Virus record (IMG/VR): IMGVR_UViG_2609459824_000008
Strand: one strand, 5' to 3'
Length of the DNA stretch: 4,564 bases
Source: a virus
Lineage: Duplodnaviria > Heunggongvirae > Uroviricota > Caudoviricetes
The notes under the pieces were generated by a model. It was not told the DNA's origin, did not search any database, and worked only from the letters and a program-made list of their open reading frames with translations. How positions within the stretch are numbered: the stretch's first letter is position 1; the number at the start of each line of letters is the position of its first letter. Below, in pieces: positions 1-4,564 of the stretch. A program made the position numbers and the translations under genes.

Positions 1-222
1 TTTACCCCGATGGTCTTCAACGAGATGCCACGATGCCTCATCACTGTTGAAAACAGCCACAAAGCCAGCAGGAATATCTGGTGGTGCAATATCGGTACTG
101 TTTGCTGGCAGACCTGTATGAGGCGGAATATATGCGTCACCTTCACCAATAAATTCATTAGTTCCGGCCAGCAGATTATAAATTTTTATGGTCCGTGCTT
201 GTTCACTCATTCTGAATGCCAT
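1..222 (-). CDS. tfa: Tail fibre assembly protein Tfa, N-terminal 74 codons; the 3' end of the gene lies beyond the window start
   Basis: Minus-strand ATG at 222-220. Hand translation of the reverse complement of 1-222 gives [74 protein letters not shown], open to the window edge. This matches the lambda Tfa N-terminus as I remember it almost residue for residue. The start overlaps the stf stop as TAATG. It is absent from the supplied ORF track because it has no in-window stop. Confidence 0.9.
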
Positions 223-3200
223 TATGCAAGCCTCACAATATAGTTAAATGCGATGTTTTTGACGGTGTTTTCCGCGTTACCCGCAGCGTTAACGGTGATG
301 GTGTGTCCATGTGAACCAATCGCAACGGAGTGCGTATGCGCACCAATACCTACAGTATGTGCATGTGCGCCAGAACTTGCTGCAGTACCAGACAGCGAGT
401 GGGTATGAGCACCTGCTGACTGTGTCTGAATACGTTGATAATACGATCTATAGGAAGAAGTCTCCGGGCTTACTTGATACTGTGAATTCTGGACATAAGT
501 GAACCCACCGCCATCATAAAATGCTAACGCAGAACCGCCGCCTCCTGGCCAACGAATACCATTACCATGAGTATGAACACCGGCAGACCCCGTAGAGCCA
601 CTCAGACTGTGCGTATGCGCCCCGGTGTTATTCGTGGATTTAGTGCCGTAATCAAACGACGATGTGGTTTTCGTCCCCAAATCCGTACTGGATGCGCTGG
701 CGCTGTGGGTGTGCGATTTAATGCCGTCCTGTTCCTGAGACAATACGGCCCGGCCACTGGCGGGGTTGCCCTTGATTGTCCAGCCGCGCATATCTGGAAT
801 AACACCTGAAGGATAGGCAATAGCCAGTTTCGGATATGCTGCCTTATCAAACGTCTGCCCCTGCATGATTGCATAACCTGCAGGTGGTGTATCTGATGGC
901 CACGGCAGCGGAACACCTGGCGGAAACGCTTCAATATTTGCCGAGCCGTCAAATTTTACGCCGTTAATTGTCCTTGCAGTTTGCAATTTGGTTGCTGTGC
1001 TTGCATTACCCGATAAAGATCCAGTGATACCACCACTCGCGTTTAATTTAGTTGCAATTGTAACATTGCCAGTATGGTTACTAATTATAAACGGCCTTAA
1101 GCTATTGTGCGTACCAAGACTGTTACCCGAATCTGTCAACATAAAATATGTGTTTGATCCATCATTTCGGATAAAGAATCCATAGTTGCCATAGGCAATA
1201 CGCAGACCATTTGCTGACCTTGAAATAACCTCACCAGCAGCAGTTAAACCACCTGAAAGAGTCCCTCCAGTTAATGCCAATGCCCCAATATTTGAAGGGG
1301 TCAATGTGATATTTGCACTACCATCAAATGACACACCGTTAATCGTTCTGGCTGCCTGAAGTTTCGTGGCGGTCGCAGCATTACCTGTAGTGTTTTGATT
1401 ACCGGTAGCGTTGACTCCAGGCAAGTTGATATCTGCCGATCCATCAAATGCCACGCCCCCAATCTTACGTGCTGTCTTGATCTTGGTCGCAGTATCTGCG
1501 TTTCCGGTCAAATTACCAGTAACACTACCACCAACTTTTAGTCCATTACCGATGGACACCAACCCTGATCTTAAGTTTATAGAGAATGGTCTTAATGAAC
1601 CGATGTCTCCATTTTCCCCCTCCCCTTCATTAGTCGGAATAAGATGAAGATGATCTTCGGAACGCCTAAAAATAAGGCCAAAGGCTTGGTTGAATATTCG
1701 AAGAGCATTTATCGTGCTGATTTTTAACTGCCCTCCCATTGTGTCGCCAGTTTTTTGAACTGAACTATCTTTAACAGTTTTAACTGCCTTTGGCGTTGCC
1801 GCCAGCTTTTCACTGGTGCTGTTTGTTGCACTGCTGAGCTGTACTATCCCCTTTTTCGTCGTGCTCGCATCCTCCAGCGCCACGGCGGATGCAATATCCT
1901 CTGCCCGTTTTGCTGCTGTCTCGGCGCGCGTTGCCGCGGATTCAGCAGCAACTTTGCTCTGAGATGCAGCCGTCGCACTGCCTGCCGCCTCTGATGCTTT
2001 CGTTGTTGCTGTCGTGGCACTACCTTTCGCTGCTGACGCTTGTCTGGTCGCCTCATCTTTTGAAGCAGACGCAGATGATGCCGATGACGCCGCTGAACTG
2101 GCTGACGATGCGGCTGCCGCCTTAGAGGAAGCAGCATTGTCTGCTGAAGTCTTTGCATTTGTTTCAGAGGTTTTTGCTGCAGAAGCAGACCTCGCTGCTG
2201 CAGTGGCTTGCTCAGTGGCTTTGCCAGCCTTCGTTGTGGCTGTTGAAGCGGATGATGCGGCGCTTTCTGCCGATTTTCCGGCGGCGGTGGCACTGGCTGA
2301 GGCCTGCCCGGCACTTGTTGACGCGGCACTGGCAGATAATGCAGCCGCTGTTTTTGAACCTGCCGCAGCTGAGGCGCTCTGTCCCGCTGCTGTTTCAGAA
2401 GACTTAGCGTTCGTCTCGGACGTTTTTGCCGCCTTCGCGGAATTTCCTGCCGCCGTTGCCGAGGAAGCTGCGCTGCTGGCGCTCGAGGCTGCGCTCGTTT
2501 CTGATGATTTTGCCGCCTCTTTTGAAGCTGACGCATCCCGGGCTGAGGTGGCAGCTTCTGACGCTTTCGTGGTCGCGGTGGATGCAGAAGTGGCTGCTGA
2601 TTGTTGTGACGCTGCCGCATTCGTTTCTGACGTTTTCGCCGCAGCGGCACTGGTGGCCGCCGCGCTTTTTGAGGACTCTGCAGCGGCAGCACTTTTTTCC
2701 GCTTCAGTGGCCTTTGTTGATGCCGTTCCTGCGCTGGAAGACGCTGACTGAGCCGACGACGCGGCCTGTCCGGCTGACGTGCTGGCTGCGCGTGCTGAGC
2801 CTGCAGCATCAGTCGCATGGGTTGCCGCCTCACGGGCTGATGTGCCGGCATCGCTGGCTGACTTCTTCGCGGCTGCCGTGTTCTGTGCCACCGCGGACGC
2901 GTTACGCGCCACCTCTTCCACCATCAGTTCAAAACGGCGCAGAGCCTCAGGACGGGCATCATCCTCTGTCATGGCACCGAGAAAATCATTCAGCGTACCG
3001 GGTTGAGAATCTTCATACACGGTAATGGTCCCGGCATGTGATGGCGGGAATCCCTCCACCAACAGACTGACGCTGTACTGACCATACTCGACGTCCATTG
3101 TGTAACGCCCGGCTTCATCCGGGTTTTCTGAGGCCACTGTGTTCACCACCACCGTGGTGCTGTTGCGCCTGGCCTTTAGCTGAATGGTGCAGTTTTGTAT

Positions 3201-3248
3201 CGGCTTACCTGCGCCATCTTTCAGTACACCTGAAATCCGTACTGCCAT
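222..3248 (-). CDS. stf: Side tail fibre protein Stf, intact 1008 aa: lambda-like N-terminal domain, Ala/Ser/Thr-rich shaft, tail-fibre repeat modules, His-x-His C-terminal tip
   Basis: Single uninterrupted ORF in the track. N-terminus [36 protein letters not shown] and C-terminus ...[40 protein letters not shown] match lambda Stf and E. coli prophage StfR-type fibres from memory. Minus-strand ATG at 3248-3246 is preceded by a G-rich Shine-Dalgarno-like run (GGGGGG, plus coordinates 3252-3257). Stop TAA at 224-222. Gene order lom-stf-tfa is as in lambda. Confidence 0.95.
303..713 (-). other. C-terminal tip region of Stf carrying seven His-x-His motifs (predicted metal-binding trimeric needle, as in T4 gp37 and lambda Stf)
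   Basis: HxH pairs at residues 846/848, 878/880, 892/894, 948/950, 962/964, 971/973 and 980/982 (SHTHS, GAHTHS, VHTHG, GAHTHS, AHAHT, AHTHS, SHGHT). On the plus strand these appear as recurring gtg/atg-rich blocks, for example gtgcgtatgcgc at 330-341 and 609-620. Confidence 0.7.
927..1010 (-). repeat. Tail-fibre repeat unit 3 within stf ([28 protein letters not shown], residues 747-774)
   Basis: Same 28-aa motif. DNA 946-1010 (gccgtcaaattttacgccgttaattgtccttgcagtttgcaatttggttgctgtgcttgcattacc) aligns by eye with 1321-1385. Confidence 0.8.
1302..1385 (-). repeat. Tail-fibre repeat unit 2 within stf ([28 protein letters not shown], residues 622-649)
   Basis: Same 28-aa motif. The DNA copy begins exactly 120 nt from unit 1 (1321 vs 1441, both starting ccatcaaatg). 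Confidence 0.8.
1422..1505 (-). repeat. Tail-fibre repeat unit 1 within stf ([28 protein letters not shown], residues 582-609)
   Basis: 28-aa motif G-N-A-x-T-A-T-K-[IL]-x-x-A-R-x-I-x-G-V-x-F-D-G-S-A-x-I present three times in Stf. The plus-strand DNA 1441-1505 (ccatcaaatgccacgcccccaatcttacgtgctgtc...) is visibly similar to 1321-1385. Confidence 0.8.
1869..2891 (-). repeat. Low-complexity Ala/Ser/Thr/Lys-rich shaft-coding region of stf (about residues 120-460) with recurring AAKTSETNA-like motifs
   Basis: The translated Stf is dominated by A, S, T, K, E over about 340 residues. KTSETNA occurs three times (residues ~205-211, ~275-281, ~359-365). The GCN/TCN/ACN codon periodicity explains the long shadow ORFs in other frames and on the plus strand (2014..2751 +, 1844..2851 -). 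Confidence 0.8.
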
Positions 3249-3257
3249 ATTCCCCCC

Positions 3258-3285
3258 ACAAAAAAGCCCGCCTGAACCGGCGGGC
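3258..3285 (-). terminator. Rho-independent terminator between lom and stf (minus strand)
   Basis: Minus-strand sequence GCCCGCC-GGTTCA-GGCGGGC followed by TTTTTTGT. The 7-bp GC-rich stem is at plus 3266-3272 / 3279-3285 with a 6-nt loop; the U-tract corresponds to plus 3258-3265. It lies downstream of the lom stop (3313-3315) and ends about 10 nt before the stf start codon. Confidence 0.65.
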
Positions 3286-3312
3286 TGTCATAACACTGTG
3301 TTACCTGGCTAA

Positions 3313-3912
3313 TCAGAATTTATAACCGACACCAACGATGAAACTGTTGGTACGCCAGTCACCGCTGCCGGAGCCTTCATAAGCAATATCAATGGCCACG
3401 GATTCGGTCGGGTTAAACTGCACGCCAGCTCCCCACGCCAGAGACGTGTTGCTGTGGCGACCGTCATCACTTCCGGTCAGCACGTCGTGCGTTTTCCCCT
3501 TGTTGTCAGTTACGCGGAGATAATCCCCGGAGAAAGTCGACACACGGCTGTAAGCCACACCCGCCATCGCATACGCGCTGAACCATTCATTCACGCGCAC
3601 AGACGGCCCCGCCATCACGCTGAACCAGCGGTTACGAACGGAATCTTCATGCCAGCGGGTATCGCTGTAACGGGTAAGCTGGCGATTCTTGTCTCCTGCA
3701 TAGCTGAATGACGTCACCATCCCCAGTGTGTCCGTAAACTCATAACGGTATTTCACGTTAATCCCGTTCAGATCATCGCTGCCGGGAACGTTCGTCGAGG
3801 CATGAAGATACCCCGCGCTCAGCGTGGACTGATGTTCAGATGCCCATGCAGGCGCACCGGATACGGCCAGACAAATGGCTGCGGACAAAATTGCTGCACA
3901 AACTTTACGCAT
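3313..3912 (-). CDS. lom: Lom outer-membrane beta-barrel protein (Ail/Lom family), 199 aa with N-terminal signal peptide
   Basis: Complete [42 protein letters not shown]...FIVGVGYKF, which matches lambda Lom from memory. It has a signal-peptide-like N-terminus with an AWA-SE cleavage context and a C-terminal aromatic residue (YKF) typical of outer-membrane barrels. Shine-Dalgarno GAGAGG (plus 3918-3923) sits 5 nt upstream of the ATG at 3912-3910; stop TGA at 3315-3313. Confidence 0.93.
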
Positions 3913-3933
3913 AATTACCTCTCGCTTTTCTGC

Positions 3934-3960
3934 AATAAAAAAGGCGTCATTCCTGACGCC
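3934..3960 (-). terminator. Rho-independent terminator between J and lom (minus strand), possibly weakly bidirectional
   Basis: Minus-strand sequence GGCGTCA-GGAA-TGACGCC followed by TTTTTTATTG. The stem is at plus 3943-3949 / 3954-3960 with loop 3950-3953; the U-tract is plus 3934-3942. It lies 23 nt downstream of the J stop. On the plus strand the stem is followed by ctttattgg, which is T-rich enough that weak opposite-strand activity is possible. Confidence 0.6.
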
Positions 3961-3982
3961 CTTTATTGGGGTTATAAATATT

Positions 3983-4564
3983 TCAACGAATACTGATGCC
4001 GGAAGCGGCTTTTTTGGTCACAATCACCGTACAGTCGGTGATATTGCCTGCCCCCTGATTGCCTTTCTGGAAAATCTTAAACTCCAGAGTGACGCTTCCC
4101 CTGCCACTCGGCATATCAATAACCGCACTGTAGCTACCGGGAATGGCCCCTTTAGTTTCTCTGGATGCGATTAATACGCCGTTTTTGCGAACTTCAAAAC
4201 CATAACCCGTGTATCTTGTACCTCCCGGGTTATTACCACTTCCCGGATCGCTATACGCTATTCCGTTAAAGATAATGGGCGGAATAATAATTTGACGGTC
4301 AAAGTTATGATCATCGCTGATGGTGACTGTAACCGTCCCGTTTGGTGTTTCCGTATTACCCCACGTACCAGCCTGTTTCGGGAATGATTTGGATACAGCT
4401 TTAACGAAGTCACCTCTGACCTGAGTCGCCTCCAGCATGCCCTTAATCGTACAGTTTTCATTTACCGTGACATTGTTGAGCGTCCCGGCGTTCGCATTCA
4501 CACTGCCACTGATATCCGCATTTTTAGCGGTCAGCTTTCCGTCCGGTGTCAGGGAAAATGCCGG
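3983..4564 (-). CDS. J: Tail tip / host specificity protein J, C-terminal 193 codons; the 5' end of the gene lies beyond the window end
   Basis: The reading frame is open from the window edge (4564) to the TGA stop at 3985-3983. Hand translation upstream of the track ORF gives ...PAFSLTPDGKLTAKNADISGS-VNANAGTLNNVTVNENCTIKG..., matching the lambda gpJ C-terminal region (GKLTAKNADISGSVNANAGTL) from memory. The track's M at 4501 is an internal GTG (Val), not the true start. Confidence 0.9.
   Translation of the reverse strand, partial: PAFSLTPDGKLTAKNADISGSVNANAGTLNNVTVNENCTIKGMLEATQVRGDFVKAVSKSFPKQAGTWGNTETPNGTVTVTISDDHNFDRQIIIPPIIFNGIAYSDPGSGNNPGGTRYTGYGFEVRKNGVLIASRETKGAIPGSYSAVIDMPSGRGSVTLEFKIFQKGNQGAGNITDCTVIVTKKAASGISIR

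Follow-up and report, generated by a model that had tools for sequence, protein, structure and literature searches.

The window, by which we mean the whole stretch of 4,564 nucleotides analyzed here, carries on its minus strand, in this order, the C-terminal part of J, a hairpin followed by six U residues (T1), a Shine-Dalgarno (SD) sequence, lom, a second hairpin followed by six U residues (T2), stf and tfa. All features described below lie on this strand unless stated otherwise. Positions 3983..4564 hold the 3' part of J, the tail-tip/host-specificity gene, which ends with the stop codon TGA at 3985..3983. It encodes a C-terminal receptor-binding Ig domain (PF12421 Ig_GpJ_C, E=5.4e-27), and RefSeq labels the corresponding segment gpJ in E. 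coli genomes that are 99% identical. The gene lom is found at 3313..3912 and is followed by the side tail fibre gene stf (222..3248; 1008 aa). The 5' part of the tail-fibre assembly gene tfa (1..222) runs past the window edge; tail fiber assembly is the annotation at this place in close relatives.

The 199-aa product of lom matched the Pfam family Ail_Lom (PF06316) with E=1.9e-121 and 403.6 bits at a gathering cut-off of 23, and the match covered residues 1-199 of 199. A second match was obtained with PF13505 (E=2.8e-22). Inspection of the translation by eye revealed a Sec-type signal peptide at the N-terminus, with the mature part starting at SEHQ, and the C-terminal residues VGVGYKF, an aromatic end typical of beta-barrel outer-membrane proteins. 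Judged by these features the lom product is a predicted precursor of an 8-stranded outer-membrane beta-barrel of the Ail/Lom family. Proteins 96-100% identical to it are encoded at 80 viral loci; lambda-type Lom alleles, those of imm21 and E26-Berryhill among them, are 45.5% identical to it. The lom junction was matched in 4730 of 5426 complete E. coli genomes, at a median of two places per genome; among lambdoid prophages the gene is a standard marker. Decayed forms of the gene were also observed. In phage D2 (L124, 1178-1387) a lambda-type lom is reduced to its final ~55 codons, which are fused behind a J fragment and followed by an intact T2. In several prophage loci (L221, L115, L150, L165, L174), one of them in Shigella flexneri, lom is cut to 81-174 codons.

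The Pfam domains of Stf are phage_tail_N (PF08400, E=2.4e-71), Gp34_trimer, Collar and Phage_fiber repeats, the further matches being PF21446, PF07484 and PF03335. Residues 135-458 (1875-2846) form a long Ala/Ser/Thr-rich low-complexity stretch with a GC content of 0.60 and a very high GC2. This stretch gives rise to large spurious open reading frames of 335, 245 and 199 aa in other frames or on the other strand, and antisense to it the Rfam family isrG matched below threshold, reaching 23-26 bits where the gathering score is 100. The stf stop codon and the tfa start codon overlap as TAATG (220-224) with no hairpin at this position, unlike the J/lom and lom/stf junctions. An overlap of this kind agrees with coupled translation of the fibre protein and its putative assembly chaperone. 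A scan with the Stf N-terminus over one genome per species returned ~48-kb or tiny contigs of ~1x coverage and little diversity (L085-L103), assigned to Leeuwenhoekiella, Pseudomonas, Shewanella, Oceanobacillus, Desulfosporosinus, Kitasatospora and other genera. Nearly all of these matches were 88-90% identical to the query, and the Stf N-terminus of lambda itself is 90.3% identical. To judge from the matches, such assemblies almost certainly carry contaminating lambda control DNA.

J and lom are separated by a spacer of 70 nt, which reads TGA-AATATTTATAACCCCAATAAA-GGGCGTCA-GGAA-TGACGCC-TTTTTTATTGCAGAAAAGCGAGAGGTAATT-ATG from the J stop codon to the lom start codon. The T1 hairpin within it (3934..3963) consists of the stem GGCGUCA/UGACGCC (3954-3960 / 3943-3949) and the loop GGAA and is followed by U6 AUU, the U6 run lying at 3937-3942. 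With 7 bp (5 of them GC), a loop of 4 nt and U6, T1 has the form of an intrinsic terminator, and an A-tract 5' of the stem lengthens the helix. Its folding energy is -15.5 kcal/mol (z=-5.5), and none of 200 shuffled sequences folded as well. The lom leader (3913..3933) follows directly and contains the SD sequence GAGAGG (3918-3923), 5 nt 5' of the ATG.

The lom leader was compared in 182 occurrences from viral contigs, representing 156 distinct contexts and 25 distinct spacer variants. Three variants of the T1 stem were found, all of them perfectly paired (GGCGTCA/TGACGCC, GGCGCCA/TGGCGCC and GGCACCA/TGGTGCC), and mismatched intermediates were rare. Among 22 distinct sequences two of the seven base pairs showed double compensatory changes (G-C to A-U and C-G to U-A, or the reverse), and 98% of the cells were paired. 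The covariation score was reached by none of 500 shuffles, and all slid registers collapsed. This covariation shows selection on pairing, of the RNA or of the DNA, in a role that the covariation as such does not tell apart. The leader and the U-run together form a block of 33 nt with no variation among 24 of the 25 spacer variants; the remaining one has T5 in place of T6. The 30-nt scan pattern within this block is invariant by construction, and the 22 aligned variants all have T6. A terminator reading of T1 on the plus strand, antisense to lom, was also listed by the scan. It was rejected because the minus-strand T6 is kept in 24 of the 25 variants and the plus-strand T-run is not conserved among them.

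Between the J stop codon and T1 lies the TTATAACCC box (3969..3977). This box is nearly invariant across the 25 spacer variants, occurs on at least three J C-terminal alleles and is absent from lambda. It was the sole conserved non-hairpin element found upstream of the lom leader; possible roles are those of a linker for recombination and of a regulatory element.

The spacer of 64 nt between lom and stf includes AGCCCGCC-GGTTCA-GGCGGGCT-TTTTTT-GTGGGGGGAAT-ATG. Here T2 (3259..3286) is formed by the stem AGCCCGCC/GGCGGGCU (3265-3272/3279-3286) with the loop GGUUCA, followed by U6, and the stf SD sequence GGGGGG (3252-3257) is located directly 3' of the U-run. T2 likewise has the form of an intrinsic terminator (8 bp, 7 of them GC, loop of 6 nt, U6) and was top-ranked in the terminator scan. 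Its folding energy is -18.2 kcal/mol (z=-3.75; 0/200 shuffles as good). Variation of T2 among relatives is slight and restricted to single wobble-preserving changes; compensatory support is therefore confined to T1. Seven terminator-like sites were found in the window against 4.2 ± 2.0 expected, a total that is not significant, with T1 and T2 as the top-ranked sites and both of them intergenic. A search of Rfam at a permissive E-value returned nothing above the gathering scores at T1 or T2. The sub-threshold matches were at chance level, with Trp_leader over T2 (27 bits, cut-off 41) and STnc40 and STnc420 over T1.

The observations on which the initial annotation of this locus was built are thus sound. 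It had recognized lom as an Ail/Lom-family outer-membrane protein gene, which the full-length PF06316 match bears out, preceded by a strong SD sequence. It had also placed a hairpin on each side of the gene, and both indeed fold far better than shuffled sequences, T1 with covariation in addition. Of the coordinates it gave, 3934-3960 are correct and 3258-3285 are right within 1 nt.

The view of Lom as a lysogenic-conversion protein encoded by a moron is textbook knowledge. Lambda Lom is listed among the moron-encoded proteins by Cumby et al. 2012 (PMC3594210), who also summarize the moron concept of Juhala et al. 2000. The lom gene in the window could be read as a self-contained, horizontally inserted moron that has a cryptic promoter of its own and T2 as its own terminator, that is expressed independently in the lysogen, and upstream of which T1 ends the J transcript. 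Several findings speak for this reading. In Fels-1 the J-stf junction has no lom, which is what is expected of an accessory gene. Close relatives show a point of exchange in the spacer between J and lom, in that identity values of the J C-terminus are bimodal (at least 90% in 66 contexts, below 70% in 89 contexts) and lom is 78-100% identical across the same contexts. Finally, Lom-family genes with a classic moron layout occur in other slots. One is located between M and L in Fels-1, behind a spacer of 126 nt with a GC content of 0.32; the gene itself has a GC content of 0.46, compared with 0.56 and 0.58 in its neighbours, and is followed by a strong terminator. The lom of Stx phage 24B has an upstream spacer of 90 nt (GC 0.24) and a terminator downstream. 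A small hairpin with T5 was additionally seen ~28 nt 5' of the ATG of the Fels-1 gene (L122, 1118-1130).

However, the terminators do not delimit lom as this reading demands. A hairpin with U6 does follow lom, but a like element precedes stf where lom is missing. In Fels-1 only 43 nt separate J from stf, and they contain a single T2-like hairpin (AGCCGC-GTAA-GCGGCT) with T7, then the SD sequence and the ATG; the stf N-terminus is 83% identical in protein to that of the window. PhiR12_2_star and 1720a-02, which also lack lom, have other filler 3' of J, yet a hairpin with T7 and SD adjoins stf. Conversely, 15 loci with the same lom allele have an unrelated spacer of 120 nt from the first base past the lom stop codon, without the AGCCCGCC hairpin, and stf in these loci has yet another hairpin with T7 and SD upstream. 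The six stf 5' regions that were aligned share this constant layout of hairpin, T-run (T6-7) and SD. Since the arrangement precedes stf without lom, and the AGCCCGCC hairpin is missing behind lom in 15 loci, T2 apparently belongs to the stf start whether or not lom is present, and is not assignable to lom. T1, by the same comparison, appears to travel with the lom leader. The difference between loci with and without lom would consequently correspond roughly to an indel of T1, SD, lom and ~26 nt, which could represent either a gain of lom or its loss in Fels-1.

A promoter of its own was not recognizable for lom either. A consensus scan found no sigma70-like site anywhere on the minus strand of the window, in agreement with the initial annotation. 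A sigma70 position weight matrix (PWM) was run over 400 nt of upstream sequence from each of 156 related contexts and gave a mean best score of 7.2 bits against 8.7 ± 1.8 bits in shuffled sequences. Both scans operate at the sequence level with the sigma70 consensus or PWM, and a real non-canonical promoter could escape them. Furthermore, T1 ends 30 nt before the lom ATG, so that there is no room between the two for a sigma70 promoter plus leader. Candidate elements were also inspected by eye and rejected. The TATAAC in the TTATAACCC box resembles a -10 element, but it has no usable -35 partner, and the PWM scan yielded no promoter that involves it; a transcript from this -10 would begin right before a terminator, T1. 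A TTTATT 3' of the hairpin, taken as a -10 element, and a PhoP half-site were likewise without a usable partner element.

For lambda, transcription of lom in lysogens has been reported (PMC1151598), and Owen et al. 2020 list lambda lom as a gene with expression in lysogens (PMC7067206); these reports, too, are in favor of a moron expressed on its own. An array study did not detect a lysogenic transcript of lambda lom and remarked that knowledge of the lom promoter is scant (PMC2147009). Lysogenic transcription of lom in lambda needs a promoter that is not placeable by sequence analysis here. Because no sigma70 promoter is recognizable and the gap from T1 to the ATG is too short for one, any expression of this lom allele in the lysogen would have to stem from a weak, non-canonical or activator-dependent promoter, or from leak-through. 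Such a promoter would overlap T1 or lie upstream of it.

In the comparison with lambda, the limits of the divergent DNA do not coincide with the hairpins. The identity is ~100% in J down to ~4480, low from ~4440 to ~3400 and 85-100% again from the last ~90 nt of lom. The block that diverges from lambda thus comprises the receptor-binding end of J, T1 and ~85% of lom; high identity resumes within lom and continues through T2 into stf. With boundaries inside J and inside lom, the hairpins are sometimes near breakpoints but are not the limits of a unit. Base composition provided no contrast. The initial annotation had proposed a comparison of lom with its flanking genes; GC/GC3 values are 0.55/0.60 for lom, 0.56/0.60 for the stf N-terminus and 0.49/0.50 for the J C-terminus, so lom shows no anomaly beside stf. 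Lambda is likewise without contrast (GC 0.54 for lom, 0.56 for the J end and 0.57 for the stf N-terminus).

A tandem duplication with 94% identity was observed in L161 (4001-4952 and 5497-6448), which consequently has two lom genes. The duplicated unit consists of ~240 nt of the J C-terminus, T1, lom and the first half of T2; behind the duplication lie a truncated stf N-terminus and then an IS21-like transposase. The first junction contains an N, so an assembly error is possible. A unit that takes in the J C-terminus and just half of T2 does not agree with a cassette ending at T2. The comparison with lambda and this duplication prompted the idea of a functional coupling between the J receptor domain and lom. 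It was rejected: allele association (AMI) was 0.26 for J and lom 5', 0.33 for lom 5' and lom 3' and 0.32 for lom 3' and the stf N-terminus, and it decays with distance as in plain linkage. The main lom allele was found with three J classes.

Taken together, the self-contained moron is an unlikely explanation for lom in the window. The initial annotation had described the gene as a cassette of this kind, bracketed by two terminators. This does not hold, with no recognizable promoter, a T2 that goes with stf, boundaries inside J and lom, and no GC contrast. Of the hallmarks of a moron, the accessory nature of the gene stands, given the Fels-1 J-stf slot that lacks it; a recognizable promoter and a distinct composition were not found. 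Its interpretation is therefore partly supported: lom is accessory and of moron type, but not a self-contained cassette. At the family level, the comparisons suggest that Ail/Lom genes move as morons and that the hallmarks were lost from, or never present in, the copy between J and stf. A caution applies to this locus: when a gene lies in a late operon under Q antitermination, a terminator on each side does not by itself make it a mobile, self-expressed cassette.

Instead, we regard lom as probably a long-resident accessory passenger in the Q-antiterminated late (tail) operon, whose flanking hairpins would be read through during lytic growth and would be insulating in the lysogen. After induction, Q-modified RNA polymerase would pass T1 and T2, as expected from lambda, and J, lom and stf/tfa would be transcribed together. 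Unmodified polymerase would, again by analogy to lambda, halt at T1 and T2 as long as the prophage is repressed. T1 would then shield lom from transcripts begun upstream, on the J side, and T2 would bar lom transcripts from stf/tfa. Co-transcription of lom with the tail genes fits the strong expression of Lom reported for the lytic cycle (PMC9836094). The late operon of mEp460 (L246), a phage that encodes a Q-type late regulator, contains further hairpins of this type. Its GenBank annotation and our own scan revealed strong and equally good sense-strand hairpins with T-runs at 6334-6353 and 8751-8774, directly 3' of the protease/scaffold (capsid) gene and of the major tail protein gene, respectively. 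Such intra-operon "terminators" thus appear to be a general feature of these phages, which also counts against the cassette reading of lom.

Rather than a lysogenic-conversion gene with independent transcription, lom in the J-stf slot could also be a Q-dependent late gene with a role at the envelope during lytic growth, for which T1 and the TTATAACCC box would serve as a regulated attenuator or 5' stabilizer that permits no more than conditional expression in the lysogen. The missing promoter is compatible with this possibility, as is the position of both hairpins immediately 5' of an SD sequence (T1-SD-lom and T2-SD-stf), a layout that lom shares with stf, a gene of the essential operon. The strong lytic expression and the reported co-transfer of holin and lom (PMC9836094) are compatible with it as well. 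One version of it links lom specifically to the receptor-binding domain of J; the allele associations do not support this link, and as a whole we consider the proposal quite improbable. We also give little credence to the view that the hairpins act mainly at the RNA level, as 3' stem-loops against 3' exonucleases or as processing sites, and so set the relative levels at which J, Lom and Stf/Tfa are made from a single message: the mEp460 hairpins, located where transcription must go on, and the covariation of T1, which reveals selected pairing in an unspecified role, would agree with it, but the invariant U6 after both stems is the signature of intrinsic termination and would not be needed for protection from exonucleases. 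The two roles are not mutually exclusive, and in the passenger reading that we prefer a secondary role of the hairpins in RNA stability is possible.

The arrangement of lom in the window is an ordinary one that is already annotated, and the accessory status of the gene as well as both flanking terminators are on record; beyond annotation, the arrangement of lom and terminators matters little. In mEp460 (JQ182728) and Ayreon (MF807953), which are ~94% identical in DNA over the J end, lom and the stf N-terminus, a terminator is annotated on each side of lom, under the label "rho-independent terminator" in mEp460. The C-terminal part of stf differs in both phages, and the alignment is limited to the first ~2.1 kb of the window in minus-strand reading.

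Terminators distal to J in the late operon of lambda may already have been described as t'J. A literature search for a 1980s paper on these lambda late-operon terminators gave no match. Lambda itself (NC_001416, 18.9-19.7 kb) has the gene order J-lom-stf(orf401) and the same layout of hairpin, SD, lom, hairpin, SD and stf as the window. In lambda PaPa a laboratory frameshift splits stf into orf401 and orf314. Lambda and the window are nearly the same in T2 and over the final ~90 nt of lom, and the stf N-terminus has 85-95% DNA identity. In contrast, lambda lom is a different allele (206 aa versus 199 aa), the receptor-binding C-terminus of J differs, and T1 is different and weaker (CGUCCG/CGGGCG, -9.7 kcal/mol).

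Ail of Yersinia, PagC/Rck of Salmonella and OmpX of E. coli resemble Lom in belonging to PF06316, in having a signal peptide and in ending with a C-terminal Phe. Adhesion or serum resistance would be a candidate phenotype of this allele. Lom, unlike these proteins, is phage-borne and encoded within a tail operon. The Lom-like gene between M and L of Fels-1 and the lom of 24B are, like lom in the window, accessory Ail/Lom-family genes among structural genes, with a terminator on the 3' side, and are not present in all relatives. The small hairpin upstream of the Fels-1 gene echoes the T1-SD-lom layout with an unrelated sequence. The AT-rich spacers of these two genes comprise 90-126 nt with a GC content of 0.24-0.32, whereas the 70-nt spacer of lom in the window is mostly filled by its terminator.
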